The notes beneath the pieces were generated by a model. The model saw only the letters and a list, made by a program, of their open reading frames with translations. It ran no database searches and was not told where the DNA came from. A stretch of DNA of 64,000 bases from the IMG/VR virus record IMGVR_UViG_3300010355_000162. One strand, given 5' to 3'. This stretch comes from an uncultured virus (IMG/VR IMGVR_UViG_3300010355_000162). Its lineage: Duplodnaviria; Heunggongvirae; Uroviricota; Caudoviricetes. Position numbers and translations under genes: made by a program. Position 1 is the first letter of the stretch; each line of letters opens with the position of its first letter. Of the stretch, positions 29,954-63,506 are shown piece by piece.

Positions 29954-30006
29954 TTAGCGAGCCCTGCGATCATAGCGAGGCCGATCCCCGACACCACGAT
30001 CATCAT
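29950..30006 (-). CDS. 18-aa hydrophobic mini-ORF
   Basis: MMIVVSGIGLAMIAGLAK*; ATGA overlaps on both sides. Confidence 0.45.
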   Translation of the reverse strand: MMIVVSGIGLAMIAGLAK

Positions 30007-30575
30007 AAAGTACGCGAAGGCGTTGCGGGAACGGCGGTGCCGCGACTCGGGGGTGTTATTGTTCCGGTAGGACATTCAAGTGCTCCGTATTTGGCATAAC
30101 GCGACTGCCCGATGTAGATGCGACGAGGGTACTGTTCGTTCTCGCGCTGGTTGGCCGCAGTGATGCCGGGGTTGATAAGGCTGGTCGACGGATAATCACC
30201 GGGGGTAGCGGTACGTTTTTGACGTTTCATCCGCCAACCAGCGCCCCCATTGTAGTCCCCCAACGCAAAAAGTAAACGGTCGCACGTGGAGTTAACCGGC
30301 GTCACTCCACGTGCGAGACTGCGCATGTACAGGGCCTGCAACGTCAGGGCATCTTTTGGGTCATACGGGTCGACGTTACCCAGTCCGTTCACCGATGCAA
30401 CCCAACGCAGCGTCGCTGGCATGAATTGCGTAAGGCCCACAGCACCTACAGGTGAGCGGGCCTTCGGGTTCCACCCCGACTCCTGTCGCACTTGTGCGAG
30501 CAGCAGCGCCGGGGGTACAGCAGGAATGTGCTTGGCGTAGATATTCAACGCCAAGGCGAGCAGAGCTTGCTCCAT
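30003..30575 (-). CDS. Endolysin, SLT-type lytic transglycosylase
   Basis: QESGWNP.A.S.VGA.GL.QFMP.T, YNGG.G, EN..YP..I. Confidence 0.92.
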   Translation of the reverse strand: MEQALLALALNIYAKHIPAVPPALLLAQVRQESGWNPKARSPVGAVGLTQFMPATLRWVASVNGLGNVDPYDPKDALTLQALYMRSLARGVTPVNSTCDRLLFALGDYNGGAGWRMKRQKRTATPGDYPSTSLINPGITAANQRENEQYPRRIYIGQSRYAKYGALECPTGTITPPSRGTAVPATPSRTL

Positions 30576-30880
30576 CAGCGCATCGTGCAGAGGCCGATGA
30601 AGACCACGGCGCACACCAAGAAAAAGATCACGTCGCGCTCGCGTTCTTTGAGCGACGTAGTGCACTTCGTCAGGTGACAAACAACAATCGACGTGATGAT
30701 ACCGGCACCTACGCTCAGCGGCAGATGCCCGATCTTGTAGATGATGTTCGCGAGACTCGCGATATACACCCCAGCGAACGTGTTAGGTTCATACGCTGCG
30801 GCTTCGACGCCGACCCACGAAGACAGTGCATAGAGCAGCAGTGCGTTCAGGGCCAGCAGGATTGCGTTAATAAAGGTCAT
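30575..30880 (-). CDS. Putative holin
   Basis: 101 aa, three or more hydrophobic segments, directly upstream of endolysin. Confidence 0.7.
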   Translation of the reverse strand: MTFINAILLALNALLLYALSSWVGVEAAAYEPNTFAGVYIASLANIIYKIGHLPLSVGAGIITSIVVCHLTKCTTSLKERERDVIFFLVCAVVFIGLCTMR

Positions 30881-34364: not shown

Positions 34365-34394
34365 ATGGTACTGCGAACGGCCCCTAACCGTCAA
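34365..34394 (-). promoter_or_regulatory. Late-class promoter (18-nt spacer)
   Basis: TTGACG-GTTAG(N13)-TACCAT. Confidence 0.6.
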
Positions 34395-34837
34395 CGATCG
34401 TCAGGGCACCCGCAGACTGGTTCGCAGGGCTTGTCGCAGCCACCAACGCAAGGCGGATCGTCCTCGCAGGACGGTGGCGGCGGGCAGGTAGCCTTCGGCG
34501 CGCAGTCGTCGTCTTGGCACGGTTGCAGGTCGCGGGTGTAGGCCGGACCGAACTGAGCACGGGGAATCCGCATGCGGATCGTGTGGATCGGCTTGTTGCA
34601 GAAGTACACCGTACCGATGTAGCTGCCCGGTTTCGCGTTCGCGAAGTCGTCGTCAATGACGAAGCAGACCTTACCACTCTCGTCCGCCACACACGGGTAG
34701 ATCGCGAATACCTTGCGCACACCCTCGCGGTGGATACGCAGGGTCAAGTCGTCAGGGTTATATCCCTCGCTCAACGCCTTCGGCGGTTGCGCCACGCAGA
34801 CGCGTGACGTGTGGACGGTGATCTGCAATGCGTTCAT
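34391..34837 (-). CDS. Cys-rich virion protein
   Basis: 148 aa, 13 Cys, Cys/Pro/Asp tail. Confidence 0.75.
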   Translation of the reverse strand: MNALQITVHTSRVCVAQPPKALSEGYNPDDLTLRIHREGVRKVFAIYPCVADESGKVCFVIDDDFANAKPGSYIGTVYFCNKPIHTIRMRIPRAQFGPAYTRDLQPCQDDDCAPKATCPPPPSCEDDPPCVGGCDKPCEPVCGCPDDR

Positions 34838-42612: not shown

Positions 42613-43360
42613 AGGAACTCGCTGGGATATGGGTCTGGTCCCACATGATAGACGCGGCGTCACGCATGATCTTCATTGGAGTGGGTCCGAATACGTCGCC
42701 GCTGAACGATACATCAGTCGGGACTGGTGACGCCTGCTGCGGTGCAACCTGCGCGAAGAAGTCCGGGGTCGGTGCAGTTGGTGCTGGACCTGCGGCCATG
42801 AGTTCGCGTTCGAGGATCGACATCAAGTACGGGTCGCTCGTCGGCGTTGGTTGTGGTCCGGCCATCATGGCATCCGGCACGCGCGAGCGCTCGCCCGCCA
42901 ACATCGCGGTGAACTGCTGATCCGAGCGCTTCGGTTGCGCGTAGTTGCTTGACGGCAGCGAGGCCCAAATCTTCCCGAGCTTCGGTGTTGCCTTCTCGAA
43001 CTCACCGTTCTTCACCGCATCCAGCACGCCCGCATTGCGGATCAGCGCGAGCGCTGCGCGGTCTTGGTTCTGAGGCGAGAAATCGTTGAGCCCGAGCTGT
43101 TTGGCTAGGCCGTTCCACGTGCGTTCGCGGAACTGGTACTTGCCTGCCGCCGACGTGGAGTTCTTCACACCGTCAGTCTGGCGGAACGCGAAGTATTGCC
43201 GTGGGTGATCCGCCATCGACGCCATCGGCTTATTGCCGAACATCATGTCGTAGCCGCCGTTAGGTCCAGACGTGTTCACGCCCTCTGCCGCAGCGATCGC
43301 GTCGAGGTACGCCCGTACGTTCGGGTTCTGTAGGTCTTGCAGGTCAGATTCGAGAGACAT
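42596..43360 (-). CDS. Virion-associated lambda-R-like muramidase/transglycosylase (ejection protein)
   Basis: A.LD.IA.AEG, GYD, HPR, SAAGKYQF..TW, DFSP.NQD, WASLP. Confidence 0.9.
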   Translation of the reverse strand: MSLESDLQDLQNPNVRAYLDAIAAAEGVNTSGPNGGYDMMFGNKPMASMADHPRQYFAFRQTDGVKNSTSAAGKYQFRERTWNGLAKQLGLNDFSPQNQDRAALALIRNAGVLDAVKNGEFEKATPKLGKIWASLPSSNYAQPKRSDQQFTAMLAGERSRVPDAMMAGPQPTPTSDPYLMSILERELMAAGPAPTAPTPDFFAQVAPQQASPVPTDVSFSGDVFGPTPMKIMRDAASIMWDQTHIPASSYAQSG

Positions 43361-43365
43361 GTCGG

Positions 43366-44736
43366 TTACCTGTTCCCTTGACCACGGGAGGGGTCGTACC
43401 AGAGTTGACGCCTAGGCTCCGCGGGCGGTGCACCGGGCTTTAATGTCGGGTACGTTGCCGCATTAAACTTCAGCATTTCCTCGAATTTGGCGGGGGTCAT
43501 CCCGAAAGACCTTACTAGCTCCGGGTCGCGCTGGGCGATGTCGACCAACTGTAACATTGTCGGGCCGTCTAACTTCACGTGTCCAATGTCACTAGATTGA
43601 AGTCCCATAGCCCGTAGTGCCCGAGTATCTAGTATTTTTCGGTGCTTTCGCGCCGCCGACGCTTTCGCCTGCTGCGCTGCTTCAAATTCGCTCACCGCTG
43701 CACTACGTCGCGCAATAGCTTCGACCGGGTTAAGTCCGTTCGCGGTGAGCCACGCTATCTCTGCGTCCATACCCGCTAGGTTTGGACCCCCTACCGTAGT
43801 GCTGGTTTGAGCTGTGTCGCTGGGTGTGCTGGTTTGAGCTGTGTCGCTGGGTGTGCTAGGGGTCGCCGCGGAGGTCACCATCCCGGTAGGTTGCACGGTA
43901 CCTCGGTTAAACCTAGTCAGCATATCTGCGTTAGACTGGCTGATCATCGGCGTCATACCTGCCGCATCTTTAATGTCCGGTGTGTTCGGCTCTGCAATAG
44001 ACGCGGTCATACCTACTGCGGGGGCTGCATTATCAGGAGAGGGGAACCTCCGGGTACCGACTACCATGCTAGGCGCAGCAGCTCCACCGTACCCAGCAGT
44101 CCCGGTTGGACGCAGCGCGGATTGCGCGGCTGCGATACTTGCCATTACTTGGTCTGACTTCACTTTCTGTTGGTTCATGGCGATGTTAAACATCGTAGGC
44201 TGGACCACCGTCTGCTTACCCGCTGTGTCCGTGTGGACGATAAGCCCGCTCGGGGCGCGCCACAGAGTGCTCGGGTCAACGCCCATATGAGATGCGATAC
44301 CGTCTAGGTTTCCGGCAAGATAGTCCTTAGAGAACGCCGCCTGTTTCACACCCGCTTGTGCGTTCAGGAGGTCTATCTGTTTGTTTGCGTTGTTGAACCC
44401 GAAACCATCGGTAAGTAGCTTTGCATACCCCTGTGGGTCATTTGCGTATGCTGATAGCGTGTCCGCCTGAACCCCCGTTAAAGCCTTCATCGCTGGGTGC
44501 AGTGTACGAGCGAGCTCGTCAGTGCGAGATAACCCCGCCAGCGCGTACGGGAACTGTTGCCCTCTCTGGTCGATCGTCTGCTGGTTGAACGCGCGAGTAA
44601 CCGCGTCGTTCATCAACGTGTTGTTCGTCTTGTTCGCATCCATCGCATCAGCGAAGACATTGCGACCGGCCTGCTCTTCGCGCTTGAACGCTACGTCGTA
44701 TGCAGCCAGACCATCGAGGAATACGTTGCGTGCCAT
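43366..44736 (-). CDS. Internal virion/ejection protein
   Basis: 456 aa, Ala/Gln-rich, no Cys, position in ejection cluster. Confidence 0.7.
   Translation of the reverse strand: MARNVFLDGLAAYDVAFKREEQAGRNVFADAMDANKTNNTLMNDAVTRAFNQQTIDQRGQQFPYALAGLSRTDELARTLHPAMKALTGVQADTLSAYANDPQGYAKLLTDGFGFNNANKQIDLLNAQAGVKQAAFSKDYLAGNLDGIASHMGVDPSTLWRAPSGLIVHTDTAGKQTVVQPTMFNIAMNQQKVKSDQVMASIAAAQSALRPTGTAGYGGAAAPSMVVGTRRFPSPDNAAPAVGMTASIAEPNTPDIKDAAGMTPMISQSNADMLTRFNRGTVQPTGMVTSAATPSTPSDTAQTSTPSDTAQTSTTVGGPNLAGMDAEIAWLTANGLNPVEAIARRSAAVSEFEAAQQAKASAARKHRKILDTRALRAMGLQSSDIGHVKLDGPTMLQLVDIAQRDPELVRSFGMTPAKFEEMLKFNAATYPTLKPGAPPAEPRRQLWYDPSRGQGNR
43799..43857 (-). repeat. Perfect 27-bp tandem duplication (STPSDTAQT x2)
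   Basis: GTGCTGGTTTGAGCTGTGTCGCTGGGT x2. Confidence 0.95.
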
Positions 44737-51541: not shown

Positions 51542-52225
51542 TTAGACCGAGCGCAAGCCACCCAAACCGACGACTGGTGCCGTCACTTCAAGGTTGATAC
51601 AAGCCAGCTTGTTCACGCCGCAGCCGAACTTACGGGCCGAGCACGAGGTGCAGCCGCCAGTCGTCGGGTCCGTCGCAGTCGGCAAAGCGTCGATCACGAG
51701 GACCACGGCTTTGTGTTTCTGACACGGTTGTGGACCGGACTCACCGGCTTCAGCAGGGCGGGTGCCTTGCGTCGAACCGTAGTAGAGCGCGTTCGCGTTG
51801 AGTTGTACGACGTTGTGCCACACTTGGCTCACAACTTCGCCGTCCTCGTTAGGGAACACGACCTCTGGTGTGTCGACATCGTTCTTGAGGTTAAGCACGT
51901 CGTGCAGTTCCAAGTGGTACTTGAAACCTTTACAGCCGTGTTTGTTCTCTACACCGACGCGGTCGAGCAAGTAACCGGCATGCACCGGAAACAGGATCAG
52001 CTTGTCGCCAGCAGCCACTTTGTCAGCGTCCGCCCAGCAAGTGAGCTGTCGCTCTTTGCCGAAGTTCAGCGCACGGAAGTAGCGCTCGTCGCGCTCGAAG
52101 CCGTGTGCAACGTCAGGGCCGTTGTTGTGGCAGCAGTCCGGCAATGCGTCACCGATGCAGCTACCCTCACCGAGCGAAGCCTTACCGATAGCGCCACCGC
52201 CGATGGACAGATTGTAAAATTTCAT
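51542..52225 (-). CDS. Cys-rich capsid decoration/cement protein
   Basis: Follows major capsid gene before terminator; 10 Cys in 227 aa. Confidence 0.6.
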   Translation of the reverse strand: MKFYNLSIGGGAIGKASLGEGSCIGDALPDCCHNNGPDVAHGFERDERYFRALNFGKERQLTCWADADKVAAGDKLILFPVHAGYLLDRVGVENKHGCKGFKYHLELHDVLNLKNDVDTPEVVFPNEDGEVVSQVWHNVVQLNANALYYGSTQGTRPAEAGESGPQPCQKHKAVVLVIDALPTATDPTTGGCTSCSARKFGCGVNKLACINLEVTAPVVGLGGLRSV

Positions 52226-52258
52226 GTTGAAACCTCTGTTGTTTGGTGGATGGGTTGA

Positions 52259-53269
52259 TTACGCGCGGTACACGTAACCTACGGCGATCGCTTCCTTGTG
52301 GGTCACTGCCCAGCCGTCGCGAATCATCGTGGTCGAGAACAGGTCGAAACCTGCACCGTTGCGTACATCACGCTCGCTCAACACGATGCCGGTTGCGGCG
52401 TCGAAGTATTTGCGCTTGATCCACACGACGCGGTAAACCGGGCGTGCTTGACCTGCAATGTCGACCGTGTCGACGGCAGCTTGACAGCTACCGGCGTAAA
52501 CCTGGAACCCGCAGCGCAAGCTGATGGATTCGCAGTATTTCGAGTCGGTGATGGATGACGACTTGCCGTTCCGTTCCGCATTCACCAGCAAGGTGCTGTT
52601 GAGGATCAGATACTTCAAGAACGTCGGCACGATCGCCGCTACGTCAGCCGCGCCGAGCAACATCTCGTCGAACACTTGCGGACCTTGAAGCAGGTACTCT
52701 AGTGCATACATCGAACCGGAAGGACCACCGACTTCGAGTGACGTGAGGCCGACAGGCAACGTAGGCGTACCGAGTCGAAGACCCGATTCACCGGCTCGGT
52801 TACCTTGCGTACACTGGGATGCCAGCGCTGGTACGCCGCAAGCCATACGCGCATCGGCATCTTCTGCCAACGCTACCTCGAACTCGCCGTTGATGGCGTT
52901 CTTGTGCATGGATGCGTCGCAGTCCACCTTGTCGTCGAGCTTGTTCGACTTCGTACGAGCGTAGTGGAAACCACCCAGCTTGTACTGGCGCTTGCAGTAC
53001 GTAGCAACGTCAGCTTCGAGCTTACCGTTGATCGCATAACCGCGCACGTTTGGACGACCGTACGACAGGAACTCGCGTGGACGACCGCACGAGGATGGGT
53101 CCGGCAACAAGCGCTGTGCAGCGTTCGCCAACGGAATCTTCGTGTAGATTTGGTCGCAGTAGATATTTTCGATAATCCCTGCGTACTCTGGATACGTGTT
53201 GCAGGTCTGATCGGGGTAGCCAGAAGCTACCTGATTCGTACCGCCACCGTAAAATTGTGAGCCACTCAT
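52259..53269 (-). CDS. Major capsid protein (putative)
   Basis: 336 aa after scaffold, SD GAGG, HK97-like C-terminal G..V....A pattern; 10 Cys. Confidence 0.75.
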   Translation of the reverse strand: MSGSQFYGGGTNQVASGYPDQTCNTYPEYAGIIENIYCDQIYTKIPLANAAQRLLPDPSSCGRPREFLSYGRPNVRGYAINGKLEADVATYCKRQYKLGGFHYARTKSNKLDDKVDCDASMHKNAINGEFEVALAEDADARMACGVPALASQCTQGNRAGESGLRLGTPTLPVGLTSLEVGGPSGSMYALEYLLQGPQVFDEMLLGAADVAAIVPTFLKYLILNSTLLVNAERNGKSSSITDSKYCESISLRCGFQVYAGSCQAAVDTVDIAGQARPVYRVVWIKRKYFDAATGIVLSERDVRNGAGFDLFSTTMIRDGWAVTHKEAIAVGYVYRA

Positions 53270-53299
53270 TTGTGATACCTCGTTGTGGGATGATTCCCG

Positions 53300-54262
53300 T
53301 TATGGAACTAGCGTCCCCGCTTGAGCGTGCTTGTTTTGGATGTCCCGTAGAGCTTGAATCTTCGCCTTATCAGGGTTCGGACTGCTGATCTCTGCGTCGA
53401 TCCGCGACTTGATTTGCGCAGCGGAGACTTTTTTGACACCCTCTGTGACAGCGCTTGGTGCACCCGCCGCTTGAGCAGGAGTAGCCATATGTGCGAAACC
53501 AGTTACCGGCTGATTCTTTTTGTTGTCCGCCAAGAATCGGTCAGCGTATCGACTCAACACCGCTGCGGCCTTCTGTGGGTCATTCTCAACCCAGTAGTTG
53601 TACGCGTTGACGCGGGGCATACCGGAGTCATCTTCGGCGTTCAGGAAGTCATCCCATCCGTCGAGTGCCTTCGCTGCCTGCACCTTGGTGTCGGCGTTCG
53701 TGAAGTTCCCTACTACGCCTTGGCGCAGTGCCGCAGTGGATCGCAAGGTCAAGTCACGCGTATCCGTCAAGTCCTTGCGGACCGGGGTCAACGCTTCATC
53801 GAGCATCTTCCGGGCCATCGCGAGGACGCGGGCTTCGGTGTTCTGCGCGACGCGAGCGTTCAACTGCAACGACTCTTTCCATGCGGCCTGATCTTCGGCA
53901 CTGATACCGCTCAGGTAATCCGGCAATTCAGCTTCAGGAGCTGCTGCGGGCTTCGGAGCTTGTCCGAGGTTCAGTTCTGCAAGGCGCTTGTTAACGCCAG
54001 CTTCGACTAACTCTTGGACCTTGCGGTCACGTGCGGCAGCTTCTTCTGCTTGCTTACGGATCGCACCGGCTTGGCGCTTCGATACTGCTGCGGGTTCTTC
54101 ACTTGGTTCTGTTTTCGCGGCAGGTGCTTGTGTACCTGCCTGAGCTGGTTGTCCACCAGCTCCATTTAGCAACTCTTGTTCAAGCGTCGCTTGCAGCTCT
54201 GCATCGGTTTCCGGTGCAGCGCCTGCGTTGCCTGAAGGGGGTTGATTTGCGTTCTGATTCAT
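53300..54262 (-). CDS. Capsid scaffolding protein (putative)
   Basis: Ala/Glu/Pro-rich, coiled coil, W..FL...D..G; no Cys. Confidence 0.7.
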   Translation of the reverse strand: MNQNANQPPSGNAGAAPETDAELQATLEQELLNGAGGQPAQAGTQAPAAKTEPSEEPAAVSKRQAGAIRKQAEEAAARDRKVQELVEAGVNKRLAELNLGQAPKPAAAPEAELPDYLSGISAEDQAAWKESLQLNARVAQNTEARVLAMARKMLDEALTPVRKDLTDTRDLTLRSTAALRQGVVGNFTNADTKVQAAKALDGWDDFLNAEDDSGMPRVNAYNYWVENDPQKAAAVLSRYADRFLADNKKNQPVTGFAHMATPAQAAGAPSAVTEGVKKVSAAQIKSRIDAEISSPNPDKAKIQALRDIQNKHAQAGTLVP

Positions 54263-54558
54263 ACTAAGCCTTTTTGCTGTGACGATGCGGCAGAAGTTGC
54301 CGGACGATTGACAAGCGTCTGACGAAGGACTTCGACAGCTTGAAGCGCACCAAGTGCTGCGGCCTGCGAGCGTACAAGTTGTTCTGTAGATAGCCCGAGG
54401 GTACCTTTAGCAACTTGGAGCAAAGAGGCTTCACACGTGACGGCGTAGGCACGAAACCATTCGTCGATCAGCTTACTCGGAAACTCCGGCGCGGACACGA
54501 GTTCCCGCATGTCTTTCGACACGGTGGCGAAGTCTCGTGGTGCGTTCAGGGCTTCCAT
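54259..54558 (-). CDS. Small head-assembly region protein (probably leaderless)
   Basis: 99 aa, coupled to scaffold. Confidence 0.7.
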   Translation of the reverse strand: MEALNAPRDFATVSKDMRELVSAPEFPSKLIDEWFRAYAVTCEASLLQVAKGTLGLSTEQLVRSQAAALGALQAVEVLRQTLVNRPATSAASSQQKGLV

Positions 54559-54565
54559 CGGGGGG

Positions 54566-54595
54566 ACTATAAAAACTACGGGGGCTATCTGTCAA
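54566..54595 (-). promoter_or_regulatory. Late-class promoter for head operon (18-nt spacer)
   Basis: TTGACA-GATAG(N13)-TATAGT. Confidence 0.75.
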
Positions 54596-54597
54596 AT

Positions 54598-54627
54598 AAA
54601 AAACGCCCCGAAGGGCGTTTCTTTTTT
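54598..54627. terminator. Rho-independent terminator (bidirectional-looking)
   Basis: A run, AAACGCCC-CGAA-GGGCGTTT, T run. Confidence 0.85.
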
Positions 54628-54641
54628 GTAGTGGTAGGCGG

Positions 54642-54806
54642 TTAACAGCGCTTTTTATCGTCGTCGCGATCGCCTTTTTTCTTTTTCGCTGCGCGGGATG
54701 CGTTAGCGGTGGACTTGAATTCGCCGTTCGCTTGCGCGGTCGGTTTACCGAAGCTCTTATCCAACGCGCAACCGCACGACTTGCTCTTGCCTTTACTTGA
54801 TTTCAT
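54642..54806 (-). CDS. Small basic protein with CxC
   Basis: 54 aa MKSSKGKSKSCGC...KKRC. Confidence 0.6.
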   Translation of the reverse strand: MKSSKGKSKSCGCALDKSFGKPTAQANGEFKSTANASRAAKKKKGDRDDDKKRC

Positions 54807-55089
54807 CTTTTGGTTCCTCATCTGGTAGATCACACCACCCGCTTCGCTCGCCGATGGTCATGGCTGCGACGACGACAATCAACGCTGCTCCGGTGACGAC
54901 ACGCCAGACCTCGCCTGTGGACAAGAGTCCAAGGCCAAACCCAAGCATAATGCCTCGGGCGGACATGCAGTATTTGCAATGCGATCCAATGGTCGCGTCG
55001 AGCACGCGAACGAGCACGTCACCTTTCTCAGTAACGCGCGAAAGCCAGTGGGTGTAGAGCCAACAGAAGATTGCACGATAGAGTTTCAT
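54793..55089 (-). CDS. Small membrane protein with DsbB-like CxxC-x3-R motif
   Basis: 98 aa; C38-K-Y-C41-M-S-A-R45, two hydrophobic segments, also C9 and C86. Confidence 0.55.
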   Translation of the reverse strand: MKLYRAIFCWLYTHWLSRVTEKGDVLVRVLDATIGSHCKYCMSARGIMLGFGLGLLSTGEVWRVVTGAALIVVVAAMTIGERSGWCDLPDEEPKDEIK

Positions 55090-55144
55090 CGGTTGTAGCT
55101 GACGTATTTGTCGAGGGGTAGATTGTATCCGACAGGGAGTCCGG

Positions 55145-55471
55145 TCAGCCAAAAAGTTTCGGGGCGACTGCTATCGCCACTACGGCTAAGATCGCAGCGA
55201 GGACTAAACCTGCTGCGACGGCCCGAATGACCCACTTTTTTATGCTGGTGGCGACCTCCGCGACGCCATCCAAACCTTTCAGTTTCTGGTCATGGGCGTC
55301 GGCCCGCTTCTCCAGCGCCGTCATACGCCGGTCTGCCGTCACATAGTTCTGCTCGCTATGCAGCTTGTTCAGCGCAAGGTCACTCCTGAGCTGGTGAACT
55401 TCACCCGTCAGGTTCTGCATGTTTTGGTTTAGGTCACCAAGCAGGCGTAGTAGCAGTTCTTCAGCGTTCAT
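55145..55471 (-). CDS. Coiled-coil protein with C-terminal TM anchor
   Basis: 108 aa. Confidence 0.7.
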   Translation of the reverse strand: MNAEELLLRLLGDLNQNMQNLTGEVHQLRSDLALNKLHSEQNYVTADRRMTALEKRADAHDQKLKGLDGVAEVATSIKKWVIRAVAAGLVLAAILAVVAIAVAPKLFG

Positions 55472-55473
55472 GG

Positions 55474-55974
55474 CTACCCCGTCCGGTACCAGATCGCACC
55501 AACCAGTACGAACGCGTTCCTCACTCCGAGTCCGGCTGCGCTGTGCGCGGGCAGCGTAGTGTTCGCCCCGACGGTGCCGACGATCGCCTGTATCGTAGTA
55601 CCCGCGGCGGGCGTTAGCGTAATTGACCCAGTCGACCCCGCGGCCCTGCTAAGGCTGATAAGGTGGTTGGCATCAAACACTCCTGCAAACGTGAGCGTGA
55701 TATTGGTCGCGCCGTTCTGCACCACGATGAACGAGTCCGCTCCGGTTATGGTCCCCGTTGCGGTGACGACGCGGGCCGTACGAGTCGCGGGTACACGCAG
55801 CCCAGCGGCGGTGGCGGTTACTTTGTTTTGTTGCCCTGCGGCACTGGCGATCCGCACGCTACCTGTGAGCGTGTGGTTCGCTACCCCCGAAGTCGTGAAG
55901 TCGACCGTCGCCGAGTCGACCGCGATAAGTGTTGTGCCGGGGTCCCCCAGCTTGTGTTTGCCTCTGTGGGCCAT
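55474..55974 (-). CDS. Fibre-like structural protein
   Basis: 166 aa; DSATVDFTTSG..NHTL module shared with the 1183-aa protein. Confidence 0.7.
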   Translation of the reverse strand: MAHRGKHKLGDPGTTLIAVDSATVDFTTSGVANHTLTGSVRIASAAGQQNKVTATAAGLRVPATRTARVVTATGTITGADSFIVVQNGATNITLTFAGVFDANHLISLSRAAGSTGSITLTPAAGTTIQAIVGTVGANTTLPAHSAAGLGVRNAFVLVGAIWYRTG

Positions 55975-55993
55975 GATCGTTCCCTCTGTAAAT

Positions 55994-56099
55994 CCCATCA
56001 CGCAGGGCGACACTCAGATCAATACCGCCCCGCAGGGCAGTGCTCGGATCAATACCGCCCCGCAGGGCAATGCTCGGATCAGTGCCGCCCCGTGATGGG
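55994..56099. repeat. Intergenic 30-bp tandem repeats inside an inverted repeat
   Basis: GATCAATACCGCCCCGCAGGGCA(G/A)TGCTCG x2 plus partial units; CCCATCACG...CGTGATGGG ends. Confidence 0.9.
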
Positions 56100-56112
56100 G
56101 CTCGCGTGTTTA

Positions 56113-56952
56113 TTATCCCGGTAGGCGCGTCTCGAACCAGCAGTTTGCTTGGTCCGGGTTGAACCCTGTATCTATCTCAAGACTGGTGTATCCGTTTGCT
56201 GCGGTCGCCGCCGCATTCTGTACGAACGGGTGCACCGCATGCGCGCATACTATCGTCCCGCTGGTGGGGCCTGTCAGCCGTGCGCGCTCGTCGTTCGGGT
56301 CTTGGATCGAGTACCGAAACTTGAAGTAGTTCGGGCGGTACATGCTTGCGTATCCGAACCCTCTCGGGTCTGCGGAGAGCCCGGAGGCGCGTATGAACGA
56401 GGGTACAAACAAGTTCGTTGTGTTGCCTGCACCTCCACCCGCCGTGGTCATGTAGCTAACCGCGGTCCGCACAAAATACAGCCCGAGGGTGTCGATGAAA
56501 AACCGCTGCCCGACCTTAGTGACCGACCATTCAGACACACGCGGTCCTAGGTTCGCCGGGTCACCCCCGCGGAACCGGGACACAGGCAGTACAGGGGCCA
56601 CGGGTGACCCGCCGGTAGGCGATGCAAGTCCAGCGTCGCTGGGGATACCGTGCGTAGGGTGACGGTATCCGTTCGCTCCGCCGCCGTGGGCTTTGCGGCG
56701 CTCTTTGCGAAACCACAGTAGCTCAAGACGGAGGTCGAAGGCCAACGCCGCTTCGGGGACTTCAAGCGCGGTGAACACGGGGCACTTCGCCAGTGCCATC
56801 TTGGTACCGTCATGTAGCCGGGTGAAATCTACACCTGCGGGGTTGTGCAGTTGTAGCGGGCCGCTGTTCAGCAGTCCGCCGAGCGTGATATGAGGGACAG
56901 GCAGTACGATACCTGCCGCCGACTGGATTAAGGATGCGCCAGTGCCGCTCAT
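56113..56952 (-). CDS. Hypothetical protein (structural cluster)
   Basis: 279 aa from ATGA overlap. Confidence 0.75.
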   Translation of the reverse strand: MSGTGASLIQSAAGIVLPVPHITLGGLLNSGPLQLHNPAGVDFTRLHDGTKMALAKCPVFTALEVPEAALAFDLRLELLWFRKERRKAHGGGANGYRHPTHGIPSDAGLASPTGGSPVAPVLPVSRFRGGDPANLGPRVSEWSVTKVGQRFFIDTLGLYFVRTAVSYMTTAGGGAGNTTNLFVPSFIRASGLSADPRGFGYASMYRPNYFKFRYSIQDPNDERARLTGPTSGTIVCAHAVHPFVQNAAATAANGYTSLEIDTGFNPDQANCWFETRLPG

Positions 56953-57497
56953 TGCTGGGTCCACACTACGTTGAACGCAGAGTTGCCCTCAGCCTCGATA
57001 CTCATAGCCGAAAGCGCTTCTGCGATGTTAGAGCTGTCCTGTGCAACGCTCCACGTCTTCGTCTCACCTTGCGTGAGGAAGAGGCGGTTCGCAGAACCTG
57101 CGCCGGGGAAGTCGACGCGGACACGGTTTGCGCCGCCCGGAGTTGCGTCGGCTCGTAGGACGGTGACGGTGACGCTCTGCACGTAACCGAACGTATTACC
57201 TACCCACGTAGTGCCGTTGCTATCGGGATCATACGCAGCGGCCAGCGTGCCTGATGCGTAGTTCGCGCCGAGGGGCCACACAGTACCGACTGTTGGCTTG
57301 CATAGACCCGGAGTAACCGTTTCACCGGCACCGAGTGTGATCGGGATGTTCGCTGCATCGGTGTAACGCGTTGCGAACACGTACGCTTGACCGCTGGCGT
57401 TCGTGCGGTACTCCGTGTGGATCAACACCGGACCCAACGGGTTACCGGATGGGTCTACACGGCAACCTAAAACTGCGCTAAGTTGATTACATTTCAT
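56949..57497 (-). CDS. Cys-containing fibre-cluster protein, paralog of 57573-58574
   Basis: H.EYRT...G......TR.TDA...P module. Confidence 0.75.
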   Translation of the reverse strand: MKCNQLSAVLGCRVDPSGNPLGPVLIHTEYRTNASGQAYVFATRYTDAANIPITLGAGETVTPGLCKPTVGTVWPLGANYASGTLAAAYDPDSNGTTWVGNTFGYVQSVTVTVLRADATPGGANRVRVDFPGAGSANRLFLTQGETKTWSVAQDSSNIAEALSAMSIEAEGNSAFNVVWTQQ

Positions 57498-57545
57498 CGC
57501 GAAAATCCCTGTGAATTCGTGTGGCGCAGTACGCCGGTTTTACCC

Positions 57546-57575
57546 ATTGTACTGCGCGTCTAGGCTATCGGACTA
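57546..57575 (-). promoter_or_regulatory. Late-class promoter candidate (18-nt spacer)
   Basis: TAGTCC-GATAG(N13)-TACAAT; -10 partly within a 9-bp stem (57524-57557). Confidence 0.5.
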
Positions 57576-58574
57576 GCCCCAAGTTGCCACTACGCCGATC
57601 GGCGCTGCTACGTCGCAATCCTGATTGCATTTGCCGACGGTGCCGGTCGGGGTGTAAGGAGTAACGAGGTCGTTTGCGAAGTCGCCCGTTGTCGTGGTCG
57701 GCGCGCCCGCGGCGTCGAACAACGTAACCGTGCGTCGAACGAACTCCGTCACTACACCCGCCGCGCTAACGTCGCACAGTGGGATGAACTCCACGTCGGC
57801 TGGAACCACAGCGGCGGCAGGGCATGCGCCTTCTGCGAGCGTCAGCGGATCAACAGTAGCGGTCACGTCAATGCCGTCCAGTGTGTTCACGCGAACCAAC
57901 GCCCCGGTGACCGCCGAGTACCACGCCTTGCCTTCGGTGCAGCCTGTAGCACTAGCAGCAGGAGAAGTAGCACCGACGAACGGAGTGACGGCGGGCAGCT
58001 TGTTGCTGTACTGCCCTGCGCCTGTCGGTCCGGCCCAAAATGTGTAGCTGCCGGGGGTAAGTGAAGGGTCAAACAGAACAACCGGTTGGTTCGTTGCTGG
58101 GTCTTCAGCGGCTACGATGCTTCCTGCGGGAAGCCCGAGTGCCGCCAACACCGCGTCAATGCCAGTCTGCGCGCTAGCCCACGGCAGGTCTGGTGTTGTG
58201 CCTGCGAACGGCAAACCATCCATTCCGTACACGTTGCCGCCGACCTCGATTGCGTGCAAGAAGAAGTCTGCCACGACGCTAGAGCCAGGGAAGTCGGCAG
58301 CGATGTTCGGGAAGTTCGGGAACTGGAACGCGCCCAAAGGCGTGCCCCAGTGTACAGGGTTCGCTACGAGCGTATCCGGCACGCAGGCACCGGGTTTCAC
58401 GTTCGCTGGGTTCACGGTCACGGGTACGCCGTTAGCATCCGTGAAGCGCGTTGCGTGCAGGGTACGTGCCCCGTTCGCTGCGGTGCGGTACTCGTTGTGA
58501 ACGAACACCTGCGTAGGTATCCCTGCGTTATTCCAACACGCGAGGGATAAGGTCATATCAGAGCACTTACTCAT
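57573..58574 (-). CDS. Cys-containing fibre-cluster protein
   Basis: 333 aa; C-terminus C..A.P.GV..TWG shared with 58591-59367. Confidence 0.75.
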   Translation of the reverse strand: MSKCSDMTLSLACWNNAGIPTQVFVHNEYRTAANGARTLHATRFTDANGVPVTVNPANVKPGACVPDTLVANPVHWGTPLGAFQFPNFPNIAADFPGSSVVADFFLHAIEVGGNVYGMDGLPFAGTTPDLPWASAQTGIDAVLAALGLPAGSIVAAEDPATNQPVVLFDPSLTPGSYTFWAGPTGAGQYSNKLPAVTPFVGATSPAASATGCTEGKAWYSAVTGALVRVNTLDGIDVTATVDPLTLAEGACPAAAVVPADVEFIPLCDVSAAGVVTEFVRRTVTLFDAAGAPTTTTGDFANDLVTPYTPTGTVGKCNQDCDVAAPIGVVATWG

Positions 58575-58590
58575 CTTCTTTCTCCGTTAG

Positions 58591-59367
58591 TTACACGCCC
58601 CAAGTCGAAATAACTCCGACAGGGGTAGCTGGTTCACATTGAGCTGGCAAACACTCGCCGAAGGTCATCCCAACTGGCGGTGTCCCCCAAGCTCCTGTGA
58701 TTGGGTCTTGCCACAACGAGCCGAGTACGGTCGGCACAGGTGAGGCGTTGTCTGCGATTACCTGCATGCCGTTGATCGGTTGCCCGTTCAAGCAGCCGCG
58801 TACGAGTACGACTTCGATACTGTCGTCGTCGGGTTGGAACAGTGGGCCGGTAGGTTCCGCTGCATTCGTTACGGTGTTCCAACGCGACAGTTCGGCTGGC
58901 GGTACAACGGTCACGTCGTACTGCACTATGACTGCCTCGTGCGCGGCGTTGACCAACGTCACGACTTCGCGGTCAGCTGCTGGCGTGCCGGTCGAGCAAA
59001 GGACTACCTTCTGTACGAAATCAGGGTGCGGGATCGACTGCACGATGCTGTTCGCTGTGGCTGGTACGAGCGCGTCCGCACAGGTGCGGCCTTGCACCGG
59101 CACCGTCGAGCCGTTTGATGTACCGCAATCGAACGGCAGGTTCTCGCCAGTACCACACGGTACCTCGTCTGCCATTGTGTATCCGACGAGCGGGTTGTAC
59201 GCGGGATCAAGCGCCGAGTAGGTCACTACACGAGTGCATCCAACGGCTGTGGTAGTAATCGTGCGCACTGCGCGAATCTTGGAGCATCCTGCGGGCAGGA
59301 GCTTCAAGCAGACTGCGGTCGCCTCGACCGAGTCCACGCACAGCGGTTTATTTGAGCATCCGTTCAT
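58591..59367 (-). CDS. Cys-rich fibre-cluster protein
   Basis: 258 aa; ends CEPATPVGVISTWGV. Confidence 0.75.
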   Translation of the reverse strand: MNGCSNKPLCVDSVEATAVCLKLLPAGCSKIRAVRTITTTAVGCTRVVTYSALDPAYNPLVGYTMADEVPCGTGENLPFDCGTSNGSTVPVQGRTCADALVPATANSIVQSIPHPDFVQKVVLCSTGTPAADREVVTLVNAAHEAVIVQYDVTVVPPAELSRWNTVTNAAEPTGPLFQPDDDSIEVVLVRGCLNGQPINGMQVIADNASPVPTVLGSLWQDPITGAWGTPPVGMTFGECLPAQCEPATPVGVISTWGV

Positions 59368-59634
59368 CTAGGCACCTGCAAATTCTGGGAATTGATACGC
59401 AGCGAAAGCAGTGAGCCCTGCACTCACCAACTCGTCATACACAACGCGGCGTTGTTTGCGGTCTACGTCTGCGAGCTTGCCGAAACGCACGGGTTCACCG
59501 AGTCGGTATAACCCGGCTCCCGCACCTTCGACGAACACTTGAACTGCTGGACGACCTTCCACCAGCACTGCGCGACGCAGAGCTGATGGGGCCGGTGCTG
59601 GTGCGCCGGCGGCGCATGCGGTACACGTTGTCAT
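59368..59634 (-). CDS. Small protein with N-terminal CxxC
   Basis: 88 aa MTTCTAC... Confidence 0.65.
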   Translation of the reverse strand: MTTCTACAAGAPAPAPSALRRAVLVEGRPAVQVFVEGAGAGLYRLGEPVRFGKLADVDRKQRRVVYDELVSAGLTAFAAYQFPEFAGA

Positions 59635-59636
59635 GT

Positions 59637-62600
59637 TTATACCTGTGTGTAGACTTCAGTGAATCGGCAGTCGGTACCCGGCAGGCCGGTCAAGCACTGT
59701 GGGTTGTACGCGCCGTTAGCGATGTCGGCACAGAACAAGCCGCCCGCGCCGCCCGATGGGTCGCTGTACGATCCAGCCGGTGAGTGACCCCACACGACGA
59801 CGGTGTACTGGTCGCCAGGGATGTTCGGTACGAACCACGAATTCGTGTAGACGCCCAGTGTCGCGCCGACCAGCGAGCCCGGTACTGGGTCCCATGTACT
59901 CGTGCCGGTGTTCCACTTGTACAACTCCCAGAACCCGAGGATTCCGTCACCAAGGTTATCGGTAGCGAAGTTACACATGTTCGGACCAGCGTTGAACTCC
60001 GTGCCAGCGGTGCCGATGATGATGCCGGTGCCGCCAGTGATGTTCACCGTCAAGCAGCACGGACCTGCGTAGGCCGGTGGCACACAGAAGACGCCGCCGT
60101 TACCGATCGTGATGTTCTTGTTCGCGCAACCCGCGGTCTTTGCGATCAACTGCATCACTTCGGAGCCGACGACTGGGATCGGACCAGTAATGGTGACGAC
60201 CGTGGTGCCGTTGGCGCTGATAGTCAGCGGCGTTACGCCGTTCAGCAAAACGGTGCCGTTGAATCGCTCTTCGATCGTAATCGTCTGGCCGGGACACAGT
60301 CCACTGACCGTTACGTCCATCACGTTACAGTCGGGGTTCGACGTGTTGTGTGGGGTACGCGCTGCGGCGGTGATAGTGAACGCGCACGGATCACACGCTG
60401 CGGTTGCAGTGTGCGTCACGATCGCCGACGTATTGTTACCGAGCACAGGATCGGTCACGCCTACGGGCGCTGCGACCGTTGCTTGGTTGTTGTACGCACC
60501 GGCAGTAGCAACGGTGCCGGTAACCGCGAACGATGCGCTGCCGCCGTTAGGCAACGTGGTGATCGCGTAGCCGCCTGCAAGGTCGAGCGCCGTAGGCGTA
60601 CCGCCTGCTGCACCGCTGCCGTACGTAGCGACGATGCCTGTGACGGTGAAGCCCGCAGGTAGCGAGTCGGTCACGATTGCGCCATCAGCTGCGCTCGGTC
60701 CCGTGTTCGACACCGTGACGGTGTATGTGAACGGGGTACCTGCGACGCCCGTCAACGGCAGTACGGTCTTCGTTACCGAAAGGTTCGCTTGGAGCGTAGC
60801 CGTGTGTGGGGCCGATGCCGAGTTGTTGCCCGGTACTGGGTCCGGGACGCCGCCCGGTGAAGTGATCGTGGCCGTGTTGTTGTACGAACCCGCGCCGCCA
60901 CCCGAGTAATCACCGAGGATCGTGAGGACGACAGAGCCGCCAGCAGGGAACGTGGTGATCGGATGACCTGCGGCCAGCATCACGTCGTCCGGCAGGGCCG
61001 TAACAGCGCCGCCGAACTGATTCTTCAGGATGCTGTCGACTACGAAGCCAGCGGGCAGCACGTCAGTGATGATCGCACCGTCAGCCGCGTCTGGTCCGTT
61101 GTTCGTGATGGTTACCGTGTACTCGATCTGCTGGCCTACGAGCGCCGACGACTGGTCTACAGTCTTCGTGATCGCCAAGTCCGCGCTGAGCGTAACCACC
61201 GATGCGGTATGAGTCACGACAGCCGACGTGTTGTTCGCGAGTACAGGATCAATCACCGAGGCGGGTGGCTGCACGGATGCTTGGTTGTTGTACGCGCCTG
61301 CGGCGGCTACGGTACCCGTGATGGTGTACACGCACTCGCCGAGCGCCGGGAGCGTTGGGATGACGAAGCCGCCACTGAGCGCGGCGGCAGACGGGATAAC
61401 AGACGACGCGCCGCCAGTGAAGCTAGCTGCGACGTTAGACACGCTGAAGCCCGCGGGAAGAACGTCCGTCAATACGGTGTTGTCCGCTGCGTCAGGACCG
61501 GCGTTGTAGACCGTGATGACGAAATCGAACGGGGTACCGGGCGTGCCAGTCAAAGCGGACACCGATTTGGTTACGCTCACGTCGGCTGTCAGCGCAGTGG
61601 CACACAGGCCGACAGCGTCGCACACTGCGATGCGTACGCACGAGCCGTCAGCACGGCGTGCAACGATCGTGTCGCTTGCGCTTGCTGCTTCAATGCTCAA
61701 TGCGCCGATGCTGTCGCAGAGCGAAGGTGCCGGTGCGACGTATAAACCATCCGGGTTGACCATCACTGCGTTACCTGCGGTAGCGCTGATCTTCACTGCG
61801 GCTTGCAACGTATGGTTGTCGGTGCCGCTGGCGGTCAAGTCGACCGTAGGCGTGTCGTTCGCGACCAACGGAGTCTGCGCGGGAACCACTACCGGGGCTA
61901 CGTACAGGCCATCGGCGTTCACGCTGATTGCGTTACCTGCGGTCGCGCTCACCTTCACATCGGCTTGCAGCGTGTGGTTGTCGATACCGCTGGCGGTCAG
62001 GTCGACCGTAGCTGTATCGTTCGCGACCAGCGGAGTCTGCACACTGACCGGAGCCGCAGGTACGTACAGACCGTCTGCGTTCACTGCAAGCGTGTTGCCT
62101 GCGGTCGCACTCACCTTTACGTCGGCTTGCAATGTGTGGTTGTCCGTACCGCTAGCAGTCAAGTCAACCGTCGCCGTGTCGTTCGCAACCAAGGGGGTCT
62201 GAGCTGGTACTGCTGGGATCGTGATGACTGTTGCTGCTGAACCGTCACCAGGAGTGAACGTCCACTGGTTCACGCCGGACGCTACAAGCGTCGCGACCTG
62301 TGGAATGTTGCCTGCCTGGGTGCCGGAGTTCCAGCTGAACGGCGCAGCGTTGTTCGTCAGGGCTGCCGCTGGGTGCTGGGTCACGCACGCGTTAACCGCG
62401 TTGCAGAATCCGACCGCGTCAAACGCGTAGACGACTTCGTTCTCACCGTTGGCCGAGGCTGTCAACCATGCAGGCTGAGTGCCGGTAACCGTCTGATCAG
62501 GGTAGGCCGCAAGCACTGCTGCGTCGAACCCGGCTTGACTGAACGAGAACGTGATGATGTCGTCGCCAGCGCCTGTAGCGCCGAGCCACGAAGGCAGCGT

Positions 62601-63188
62601 TCCGAGGACCTGCTGCAAGGTCAACGGGGTTTGGGCTGGGATGCACGAGTTCACCGCTGCGCAGAACGCCGCTGCGTTGAACACGCCGATGTAACCGTCG
62701 CGTCCAGAAGGCGCGATAGTCAGGAACGAAGACAGCGCAACCGGCGCTGTACCACCGTTAAACAAGTGGAGTGGTGGGTTGTCCGCAACGCACTCTTCGC
62801 AGCATTTGTCTGCGCTCTCGGCTTCCGCAACGACGTACGGTACGCCTTCGGTGGCGGTGGAGTTGAACACCAACCAGCCGGGGCCGCAGATCGTTACGAC
62901 TGGCTTCTCCGACGTGATGACCAACGGGGCACCGCAGCGCATGAATGGGACGGACAGGCCGCTGCCACAGTCTGCGCCGTCCTCAAGGTGTACGGAAATC
63001 TCGGTGCCTACTGGCAACGTATACGCCGTCAGCTTTAGGCATGCGCCGGACTCAAGCCGGGTGCGCACGGTCTTGCCGCTAGACGGGCCGAATAGTGGGC
63101 CGGTGATACCGCATACAACTTCAGCGGTAGGGCAGCAACCGTTACCGTCGACGCGGGTCACTTGGTTGGTGGAAGGGCGCTTAGCCAT
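59637..63188 (-). CDS. Large fibre/adhesin with three DUF11 domains and three DGLYV repeats
   Basis: A(D/N)(L/V).(V/I)TK...N.GP.AAD...TD.LP...DPV..NN x3; QTPLVANDT.TVDLTASG.DNHTLQA...DGLYV x3; about 30 Cys. Confidence 0.85.
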   Translation of the reverse strand: MAKRPSTNQVTRVDGNGCCPTAEVVCGITGPLFGPSSGKTVRTRLESGACLKLTAYTLPVGTEISVHLEDGADCGSGLSVPFMRCGAPLVITSEKPVVTICGPGWLVFNSTATEGVPYVVAEAESADKCCEECVADNPPLHLFNGGTAPVALSSFLTIAPSGRDGYIGVFNAAAFCAAVNSCIPAQTPLTLQQVLGTLPSWLGATGAGDDIITFSFSQAGFDAAVLAAYPDQTVTGTQPAWLTASANGENEVVYAFDAVGFCNAVNACVTQHPAAALTNNAAPFSWNSGTQAGNIPQVATLVASGVNQWTFTPGDGSAATVITIPAVPAQTPLVANDTATVDLTASGTDNHTLQADVKVSATAGNTLAVNADGLYVPAAPVSVQTPLVANDTATVDLTASGIDNHTLQADVKVSATAGNAISVNADGLYVAPVVVPAQTPLVANDTPTVDLTASGTDNHTLQAAVKISATAGNAVMVNPDGLYVAPAPSLCDSIGALSIEAASASDTIVARRADGSCVRIAVCDAVGLCATALTADVSVTKSVSALTGTPGTPFDFVITVYNAGPDAADNTVLTDVLPAGFSVSNVAASFTGGASSVIPSAAALSGGFVIPTLPALGECVYTITGTVAAAGAYNNQASVQPPASVIDPVLANNTSAVVTHTASVVTLSADLAITKTVDQSSALVGQQIEYTVTITNNGPDAADGAIITDVLPAGFVVDSILKNQFGGAVTALPDDVMLAAGHPITTFPAGGSVVLTILGDYSGGGAGSYNNTATITSPGGVPDPVPGNNSASAPHTATLQANLSVTKTVLPLTGVAGTPFTYTVTVSNTGPSAADGAIVTDSLPAGFTVTGIVATYGSGAAGGTPTALDLAGGYAITTLPNGGSASFAVTGTVATAGAYNNQATVAAPVGVTDPVLGNNTSAIVTHTATAACDPCAFTITAAARTPHNTSNPDCNVMDVTVSGLCPGQTITIEERFNGTVLLNGVTPLTISANGTTVVTITGPIPVVGSEVMQLIAKTAGCANKNITIGNGGVFCVPPAYAGPCCLTVNITGGTGIIIGTAGTEFNAGPNMCNFATDNLGDGILGFWELYKWNTGTSTWDPVPGSLVGATLGVYTNSWFVPNIPGDQYTVVVWGHSPAGSYSDPSGGAGGLFCADIANGAYNPQCLTGLPGTDCRFTEVYTQV

Positions 63189-63189
63189 G

Positions 63190-63477
63190 TTAGATTGCTC
63201 CGAATCGGTTGACTTGGTTTTCGATGTTCCCCAGCAGGATACGCATCGCGGTGTCGCGATCCGTGTTACCTACCGGAGTCGACATGAAGGGCTCGCTGTT
63301 GAACAGGGTCTTGCGCTGCCGTGCACGGCTGATGCCGTTGCCGGTGTACCATTGCTTGATACCAGCGCCGAACGTGACCTGGGTTTGCGCCGGTTCATCG
63401 GCGGATACCGTGCCAGCACCGTAAACAAGGTCGAAGACCGTGTTTCCTACCTTTAGCGTACGTCCGTCGAGATTCAT
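63190..63477 (-). CDS. Hypothetical protein
   Basis: 95 aa. Confidence 0.7.
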   Translation of the reverse strand: MNLDGRTLKVGNTVFDLVYGAGTVSADEPAQTQVTFGAGIKQWYTGNGISRARQRKTLFNSEPFMSTPVGNTDRDTAMRILLGNIENQVNRFGAI

Positions 63478-63506
63478 GGCGCTTGTTAGATCACTAATAA
63501 AGCGCC

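Follow-up and report, generated by a model that had tools for sequence, protein, structure and literature searches.

A small membrane protein family of uncultured phages with an invariant CxYCxxxR motif and a possible role in building a cysteine-rich virion

An uncultured virus of the Caudoviricetes (IMG/VR record IMGVR_UViG_3300010355_000162) carries a minus-strand gene at 54793-55089 of the window, by which we mean the whole 64,000-nucleotide stretch of DNA that was analysed. Its 98-amino-acid (aa) product, P0001, is a late-operon inner-membrane protein of an undescribed family of uncultured phages, and the cysteine (Cys) motif C38-x-Y40-C41-x-x-x-R45 is kept throughout that family. We tentatively propose that the protein is a cytoplasm-facing thiol-disulfide centre serving the Cys-rich virion of its phage. 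We put this reading forward because of the invariant motif, the oxidoreductases among the nearest Protein Data Bank (PDB) profile matches, the paired distal Cys, the side of the membrane indicated by charge, the partition of Cys among virion proteins, the link to a fibre module and the precedent of inverted catalysts. From these we infer both a redox activity and its substrate. The initial annotation had gone further and described a mini-DsbB lacking the first transmembrane segment (TM1). Motif conservation, the fit to the cytoplasmic side and the Cys-rich virion all stand; the relationship to DsbB does not, and the lysis-cassette context of two of the three known loci had gone unseen.

A family with an invariant cysteine motif

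The gene and its parts are as follows.

54793..55089, minus strand: gene of P0001, the 98-aa protein and the first of an unnamed family of small phage membrane proteins to be described
55063..55065, minus strand: codon of C9, on an N-terminal amphipathic helix (residues 3-19); Cys in 27 of 31 members
54955..54978, minus strand: codons of C38-K-Y-C41-M-S-A-R45; C38, Y40, C41 and R45 invariant in 31 of 31
54916..54966, minus strand: membrane helix 1, residues ~42-58, Gly-rich, family consensus L-G-x-G-x-G-L
54850..54903, minus strand: membrane helix 2, residues ~63-80, strongly hydrophobic
54832..54834, minus strand: codon of C86, after membrane helix 2 in the conserved G-E-[R/K]-x-W-L-C; Cys in 28 of 31

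Translation and hydropathy agree with the earlier description of a 98-aa protein with C9, a CKYCMSAR motif at the start of a hydrophobic hairpin, and C86. The protein starts MKLYRAIFC9; its frame is open upstream to a TTG at 55152, which would give 119 aa, and all homologues start at the position of the ATG at 55089. The Kyte-Doolittle mean over a 15-residue window reaches 1.47 in the Gly-rich helix 1 and 2.46 in helix 2; of the residues that follow E81 in the tail, 3 are basic and 7 acidic.

An exhaustive phmmer search of 1.84 billion cluster representatives returned 31 proteins at E<=1e-3, five of them at E<=1e-10, and the members so matched are nearly all 71-135 aa long. Further close relatives, with 65-84% identity, came from a word-indexed search, and a profile search added only two new members. 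The family alignment (A2) comprises 31 sequences with a mean column identity of 29%; left out of it were a 57-aa fragment (P0005) and three proteins of 1026, 661 and 193 aa (P0030, P0033 and P0035) with multi-stretch matches of the low-complexity type. Sources call the members 'hypothetical protein' at most. P0001 had no Pfam match at E<=1 and none of any weight in PHROG or NCBIfam, its ESM Atlas scores (0.75) were at chance level, and none of the 8000 candidates scored was a fused or longer form of the family, which is weak evidence.

Where else does the family occur? No relatives were found in 50,697 deposited phage genomes by megablast of window positions 52000-58000 or by tblastn of P0001 and P0009; two rows at E 0.7 that P0020 gave by tblastn, under tail-assembly genes, were dismissed as chance. 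A degenerate DNA motif scan of one genome per prokaryote species (GTDB) gave 21 loci, none of them a true member, and GTDB genomes scanned with a second alignment, A3, gave nothing. Scans of IMG/VR with the single proteins P0001, P0013 and P0007 gave nothing, or a 12-residue chance match (L003) that was rejected. A match to A3 in a metagenome collection (L002) was a false positive, a stretch of 20 residues inside an open reading frame (ORF) of 517 aa; labelled by eye, the genes that adjoin this ORF are 5-cytosine-methylase-like and Vsr-like. The family is small, unnamed and known only from uncultured phages.

Outside the four invariant positions, W15, V27, E81 and C86 are each kept in 28 of the 31 aligned sequences and C9 in 27. 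The consensus of the N-terminal part reads F-C-W-L-Y-x-x-W-L ... D-P-L-V-R-x-I-D-x-x-x-G-S-x-C-K-Y-C-x-x-x-R, and after the motif come L-G-x-G-x-G-L, a short aromatic turn, the second helix and T-x-G-E-R-x-W-L-C. The invariant residues persist across members only 29-45% identical to P0001, and conservation of the motif is beyond chance. The expectation that homologues would keep CxxCxxxR and the distal Cys therefore survives the 31-sequence alignment. Two members of 134-135 aa (P0011 and P0022) have a conserved C-terminal extension of ~50 residues with no match among anything examined.

The distal Cys are less fixed than the motif. Four members depart from C9: in P0009 and P0021 the first Cys is placed 4 residues upstream and the spacing from E81 to the last Cys is shorter, P0032 lacks C9 only, and P0018 lacks both C9 and C86 and has instead two new Cys, C29 and C35, in its N-terminal domain. 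The three exceptions at C86 are one truncated sequence, one aberrant C-terminus and P0018. Cys-to-His replacement was found at none of the four Cys sites in the 31 members. The distal Cys change together, in support of a placement on one side of the membrane, close to one another.

On which side would they lie? Under the positive-inside rule, the basic segment of a membrane protein is on the cytoplasmic side. In all 31 sequences the part of the protein up to R45 has a net positive charge, with 5-9 Lys plus Arg, and the stretch from R45 to E81 (22-43 residues) has no more than two charged residues. A signal peptide is absent. The amphipathic N-terminal helix, in which many homologues have D, Q or K, is too short and, in the homologues, too polar for a membrane span. 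Because of the positive-inside rule the N-terminus is placed in the cytoplasm, and the hairpin then brings the C-terminus back to the same side. The predicted topology is N-in/C-in with all four Cys cytoplasmic, and the cytoplasm-facing placement first suggested for them fits this charge distribution. The hairpin could instead be re-entrant, as helix 1 is weakly hydrophobic and the shortest members are barely long enough for two crossings; in either case the four Cys are on one side.

AlphaFold2, run on the family alignment, modelled helices at residues 3-19, 26-33, 39-56 and 61-82, with a mean predicted local distance difference test score (pLDDT) of 67 and a predicted template modelling score of 0.48. 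With this model, Foldseek found nothing in the PDB at E<=0.001, and a wide structural search with VIA-align reached at best a Z of 5.7, on generic helical hairpins. In the structural comparison with DsbB and VKOR that the initial annotation had proposed, made with a model of only moderate confidence, neither protein was returned by Foldseek against the PDB or stood among the 50 matches listed by VIA-align.

The motif itself is of a familiar kind. Reactive thiolates classically sit in a CxxC at the N-terminus of a helix, beside a positive charge, and glutaredoxins are marked by C-P-Y-C with a basic residue a helical turn further on; helix-capping CxxC also occurs in Zn sites. When the family profile was compared with the PDB, the six best chains had E values of 0.28-0.99, all non-significant. 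Five of these six rows are thiol-disulfide oxidoreductases by name (1a8l, 1j08 and 3kp9/4nv2/4nv6), and none is a Zn-finger protein. In the protein disulfide oxidoreductase of P. furiosus (1a8l), both CQYC...K and CPYC...R were aligned to CkYC...R, with R45 opposite K or R. The 1j08 row, likewise non-significant, is glutaredoxin-like, and the VKOR rows (3kp9/4nv2/4nv6; E 0.74-0.78, 13 bits, non-significant) cover the motif and one helix. Judged by its sequence, CxYC(x3)[R/K] looks like a redox-type centre.

The cysteine-rich virion and the setting of the gene

The window covers most of a podovirus-like genome, with genes for a family A DNA polymerase, an SNF2 helicase, a DUF927 primase-like protein and a ribonucleotide reductase, together with an SU10-type adaptor, a 2608-aa protein and a 1183-aa DUF11-repeat protein. 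Cys is spread very unevenly over this genome. The 26 early ORFs have 91 Cys in 7018 residues (1.3%). The presumed ejection block at 34837-44736 (2608 + 254 + 456 aa) has 1 Cys in 3318 residues (0.03%), and the probability of <=1 Cys in 3318 aa at the early-gene frequency is 6e-18. The 254-aa protein of this block is a virion peptidoglycan hydrolase (phrog_17230, E 6.8e-59). The scaffold-like protein has no Cys in 320 residues. The 18 other late ORFs have 185 Cys in 6397 residues (2.9%), the exposed virion proteins have 2.4-8.8%, and single late proteins reach 4.2-8.8%; a crude baseline of 41 ORFs from four unrelated viral loci has a median of 0.8%.

The same partition is seen in a distantly related record, G001, with proteins 23-65% identical to those of the window. 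There, 389 + 284 + 2253 aa (2926 aa; L007 15434 to L008 4241) contain no Cys, and the capsid-to-fibre proteins have 2-6%; these counts ignore short, high-Cys antisense ORFs (e.g. 29550-29918) that are probably spurious. The Cys-rich virion supposed at the outset is real, and it is paired with strong Cys avoidance in the proteins that must leave the particle. The contrast in Cys content between ejected and exposed virion proteins stands as an observation in its own right and merits a wider survey.

At 34391-34837 on the minus strand, a 148-aa protein that matched no family has 13 Cys (8.8%). Its C-terminal 40 residues are almost all Cys, Pro and Asp, in the pattern C-x4-C-x5-C-x5-C-x5-C-x3-C-x3-C-x3-C-x-C.

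The genes and signals around the gene of P0001, and the lysis genes of the window, are these.

55145..55471, minus strand: upstream neighbour of 108 aa, with a coiled coil, a C-terminal membrane helix and no Cys
54642..54806, minus strand: basic peptide of 54 aa with C11-G-C13 and a further Cys at the C-terminus; its first codons overlap the last ones of the P0001 gene
54601..54620, no strand assigned: GC-rich hairpin terminator with T-runs on both strands, ending the operon of the P0001 gene
54566..54595, minus strand: sigma-70-like promoter (TTGACA, 18-nucleotide spacer, TATAGT; 11/12), by consensus match only
59368-59634: 88-aa protein starting MTTC-TA-C, with an N-terminal C-x-x-C
29202-30880, minus strand: complete lysis cassette at the end of the late region, 24 kb from the P0001 gene

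The operon runs in the order DUF11 protein, fibre-like proteins, 108-aa protein, P0001, 54-aa peptide and terminator. The program listed the hairpin on the plus strand; the T-run of the minus strand was read from the sequence directly. Terminator and promoter separate the gene from the downstream head operon, with its 99-aa ORF, its scaffold-like protein of 320 aa and its presumed capsid protein of 336 aa. Both labels, capsid and scaffold-like, reflect gene order and composition only, and neither protein matched Pfam or PHROGs.

Both neighbours singled out earlier, the basic C-G-C peptide and the N-terminal C-x-x-C protein, are real. The 54-aa peptide was found only in close relatives: seven sequences of 50-54 aa could be aligned (its own and six relatives, 87-94% identical), and all three Cys are kept in them. 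It is very basic, probably disordered, and translationally coupled to the P0001 gene. In Erv2, and in small mimics of protein disulfide isomerase, disulfides are shuttled by C-x-C motifs.

Several features of the fibre region stand on their own. The 1183-aa protein (59637-63188, minus strand) has three near-identical repeats of ~50 residues (QTPLVANDT.TVDLTASG.DNHTLQA.VK.SATAGN) followed by three DUF11 domains (E 1.2e-56), and has homologues in G001 and in a second related record, G002. The fibre-like proteins of the window (56949-59367, minus strand) and of locus L004 (4845-6269) have in common an N-terminal domain of ~70 residues with conserved Cys, C-x8-C and then G-x-C some 50 residues later. 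It occurs in two window paralogues (333 and 182 aa) and in G001, and a third, 258-aa Cys-rich fibre-like ORF gave no match to it. Elsewhere, a masked run of 720 N at 27437-28156 lies inside an ORF at 27433-29169, whose C-terminal part is a DHHA1 domain; the run causes the apparent GC dip at 26-28 kb.

The gene context of the family is known from three loci, all of one broad phage lineage: the window, L001 (record G002, from an IMG/VR scan with A3) and L004 (record G001, from degenerate DNA motif scans). Both motif scans re-found the record of L001 (as L005), and the second gave six further loci, none with a match to the family hidden Markov model. Homologues of the phrog_399 structural protein were confined to a 98%-identical fragment and two records already known.

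At L001 the order is two fibre genes, the family member, a 108-aa single-pass protein (an N-terminal membrane helix and a coiled coil), a holin (Phage_holin_2_4, E 3e-11), an M15_4 endolysin, spanins and terminase. At L004, fibre genes, a 111-aa ORF, the family member and an 88-aa single-pass protein are followed by a two-helix DUF7940 protein (E 1.9e-17), a GH19 endolysin (E 1.4e-11), spanins and a DUF11 protein. The family member comes after tail-fibre genes in all three loci, and in each a single-pass membrane protein adjoins it; these neighbours are not detectably related to each other. That of the window had sub-threshold Pfam matches to XhlA (E 0.0012, 19.4 bits, cut-off 34.7) and DUF1515 (E 0.008).

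The window sets the fibre and lysis modules apart, and the family member stays with the fibres. The lysis cassette of the window consists of a 101-aa multi-helix holin candidate, an SLT-domain endolysin (30003-30680, E 4.7e-19), two small ORFs of one helix each, and an i-spanin of 185 aa in which an o-spanin of 70 aa (lipobox L-S-S-G-C) is embedded in another frame. The modules have been shuffled between the two phages: the DUF11-fibres-member module is upstream of the head operon in the window (54259-63500), and in G001 it follows the tail genes and is split by the lysis cassette.

What the protein might do

How could a protein of this kind serve a Cys-rich virion? From the N-terminus, its predicted build is a basic amphipathic helix with C9, a short helix, G-S-x-C-x-Y-C-x-x-x-R at the N-terminal end of a Gly-rich helix, a very hydrophobic second helix, and G-E-[R/K]-x-W-L-C86. 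CxYC would be a redox-active dithiol/disulfide centre. The N-terminal end of the helix and the Arg a turn further along would stabilise its thiolate, as happens in glutaredoxin-type CxYCxxx[K/R] and in DsbB CxxCxxxR. Its exchange partner would be a second Cys pair of flexible position, C9/C86, and its substrates the Cys-rich outer virion proteins encoded by the same late genes. Membrane location and the Arg are the two features that suggest a quinone as the conjectured electron acceptor. As to precedent, inverted DsbB or VKOR facing the cytoplasm has been used to form disulfides in the E. coli cytoplasm, according to a section of PMC5471842.

A fuller version can be imagined, which we think unlikely. 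In it, the protein would be a minimal two-helix, cytoplasm-facing, disulfide-generating phage enzyme, unrelated by descent to DsbB, VKOR or Erv. CxYCxxxR would pass electrons to a membrane acceptor such as quinone, C9/C86 and perhaps the C-G-C peptide would cross-link the outer virion proteins before lysis, and the ejection and scaffold proteins would be near Cys-free to escape cross-linking.

A number of points weigh against a thiol-disulfide role. No homology to any disulfide-generating enzyme was detected by Pfam, NCBIfam, PDB profile, hhalign or fold searches. Four cytoplasmic Cys most often make up a Zn or iron-sulfur (Fe-S) site. The protein has two membrane helices where DsbB is a four-helix, quinone-binding bundle. 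The quinone contacts of DsbB, as given in part of PMC4555120, are made by the CxxC helix and by the preceding helix A, at positions 25, 29 and 33; P0001 has no 'TM1' and therefore lacks half of a DsbB-type quinone site. Among the window ORFs scanned there was no thioredoxin-like partner, and DsbB was found in neither of two related phage records (control genomes were positive in 6 of 14). The AlphaFold2 model is moderately confident, its N-terminal domain having a pLDDT of 52-65. Finally, in two of the three loci the family member is directly upstream of a holin-endolysin cassette, two genes before the endolysin, and, because the three loci belong to one broad lineage, the link to fibre genes and the link to Cys-rich virions are not independent evidence. 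Gene context is ambiguous between the fibre and lysis links.

The main rival, a possibility that we take seriously while doubting it, is a metal-binding lysis accessory: an antiholin, holin partner or timing factor with a Zn2+ or Fe-S site, possibly shared by two copies. Such a protein would be small, as this one is, with two membrane helices, a charged C-terminal tail and a conserved G-x-x-x-G-type motif, and the order fibre, member, holin (at L001) or holin-like protein (at L004), endolysin and spanin would suit it, as would the weak XhlA-like match of the window neighbour, itself below the cut-off. A Cys4 site is moreover the usual reading of four cytoplasmic Cys. Yet the window phage has its complete lysis cassette 24 kb away from P0001, which sits in another operon closed by a terminator; no holin family was matched in Pfam (31 members) or PHROGs (P0001); and of the other two loci, L001 has a recognised holin of its own and L004 a DUF7940 protein that is holin-like. 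Nor are the distal Cys invariant: C9 (27 of 31) and C86 (28 of 31) both move and never become His. In this small sample, moving distal Cys without Cys-to-His exchange would be easier to reconcile with a redox pair than with a fixed Cys4 metal site, and a plain Cys4 site does not require the Tyr inside the motif or the Arg at +4.

The same motif evidence for a reactive CxYC beside the membrane, and the adjoining holins in two of three loci, could also be taken for a membrane thiol redox sensor of the quinone or cytoplasmic thiol pool, tied to the timing of lysis or late assembly and not oxidising the virion. The ArcB kinase senses quinones through a membrane-proximal cytoplasmic Cys. No output domain or partner was identified, and the data do not separate sensing from catalysis; we consider a sensor quite unlikely. 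Less likely again is a superinfection-exclusion protein, or another modifier of the host membrane, in which Cys would matter only for the fold. Small inner-membrane exclusion proteins beside receptor-binding genes are known (T4 Imm, the Cor/Llp type), and the family member follows tail-fibre genes in three of three loci; such proteins are, however, usually early and fast-evolving, whereas this one is in a late structural operon and has an invariant motif.

A carrier of thiophilic metal ions (Zn2+, Cu+ or Hg2+-like) seems very improbable. MerF and MerE are two-helix, Cys-pair mercury transporters, and here too a two-helix hairpin has Cys at its cytoplasmic ends; one of the 31 members even had a weak NCBIfam match to MerC (E 0.029). 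There is, however, no vicinal CC or CPC inside helix 1, no significant family match, and no metal-handling neighbour was seen.

True descent from DsbB or VKOR, in truncated form, is close to refuted: the C-x-x-C-x-x-x-R spacing before a Gly-rich helix is identical, and hhalign aligns SHCKYCMSARGIMLGF-GLGLL with a stretch of E. coli DsbB, but at a probability of 1.9% over 21 columns of A2, and the family has two helices, not four, with 0 of 31 members matching Pfam DsbB (PF02600) or VKOR (PF07884) at E<=1, VKOR at E 0.74-0.78 and DsbB chains absent from the PDB profile matches at E<=10. The descent implied by the label 'mini-DsbB' is thus not borne out, and the family is homologous neither to DsbB nor to VKOR. 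Taken as a statement of mechanism, the label may or may not apply.

Comparison with known systems

The thiol-disulfide reading is best judged beside systems whose workings are known. With DsbB, the protein has in common C-x-x-C-x-x-x-R at the start of a Gly-rich membrane helix, two further Cys and a place in the membrane; the E. coli K-12 protein does read C41-V-L-C44-I-Y-E-R48, as the original comparison held. The differences extend beyond helix number. The motif of DsbB is periplasmic and that of P0001 predicted to be cytoplasmic. The second Cys pair of DsbB is in the TM3-TM4 loop, whereas P0001 has no such loop, its C9 being on the N-terminal helix and its C86 after helix 2. DsbB has a DsbA-like partner and none is known for this family.

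VKOR is alike in that the Synechococcus protein has a membrane helix beginning at C-M-Y-C, which aligns with C-K-Y-C and helix 1. It differs in its four-helix core, its loop Cys and its often fused thioredoxin domain. VKOR also occurs in giant viruses, as part of PMC13486548 relates.

Glutaredoxins and archaeal protein disulfide oxidoreductases share a hydrophobic stretch, small residues, C-x-Y-C and a basic residue at +4, and 1a8l and 1j08 head the non-significant PDB profile matches. They have the thioredoxin fold, which P0001 lacks; its model is all-helical and mostly a membrane hairpin.

Class II holins and pinholins (for instance Phage_holin_2_4 and S of phage 21) are likewise shorter than 100 aa, with two membrane helices, the first Gly-rich, a charged C-terminus and, in two of three loci here, a position near lysis genes. 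P0001 has these general traits (98 aa, two membrane helices and a charged C-terminal tail). In contrast to them it has a 37-residue basic N-terminal domain and the invariant Cys motif, and matches no holin family. Elsewhere in these genomes, L001 has a recognised holin (Phage_holin_2_4), and the window and L004 have only candidates.

What would a thiol-disulfide function mean? If disulfides are made or relayed by this family at the cytoplasmic side of the membrane, it would be the first phage system of its kind and the smallest membrane thiol oxidase known, and it would explain how a Cys-rich particle is built inside a reducing cell. We found no phage disulfide-forming system in the open-access papers and preprints searched, and a passage of a 2026 paper states that no disulfide-forming enzyme has been described for bacteriophages (PMC13576161). 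The protein would further be a candidate for use in producing disulfide-bonded proteins in the bacterial cytoplasm, as Erv1p or inverted DsbB/VKOR are used today (PMC5471842). If the protein is instead a metal-binding lysis accessory, its family is still a conserved one that has no name, with a motif that is clear and can be tested.

Among viruses of eukaryotes, those with large DNA genomes are known to have disulfide-forming enzymes of their own. Erv-family enzymes are soluble flavin adenine dinucleotide proteins with the Erv fold, and P0001 is unlike them in this. The proposed likeness to the poxvirus E10R-A2.5L-G4L pathway and to Erv-family oxidases is one of function, a virus-encoded disulfide route in a reducing cytoplasm, as outlined in the relevant part of PMC13576161.

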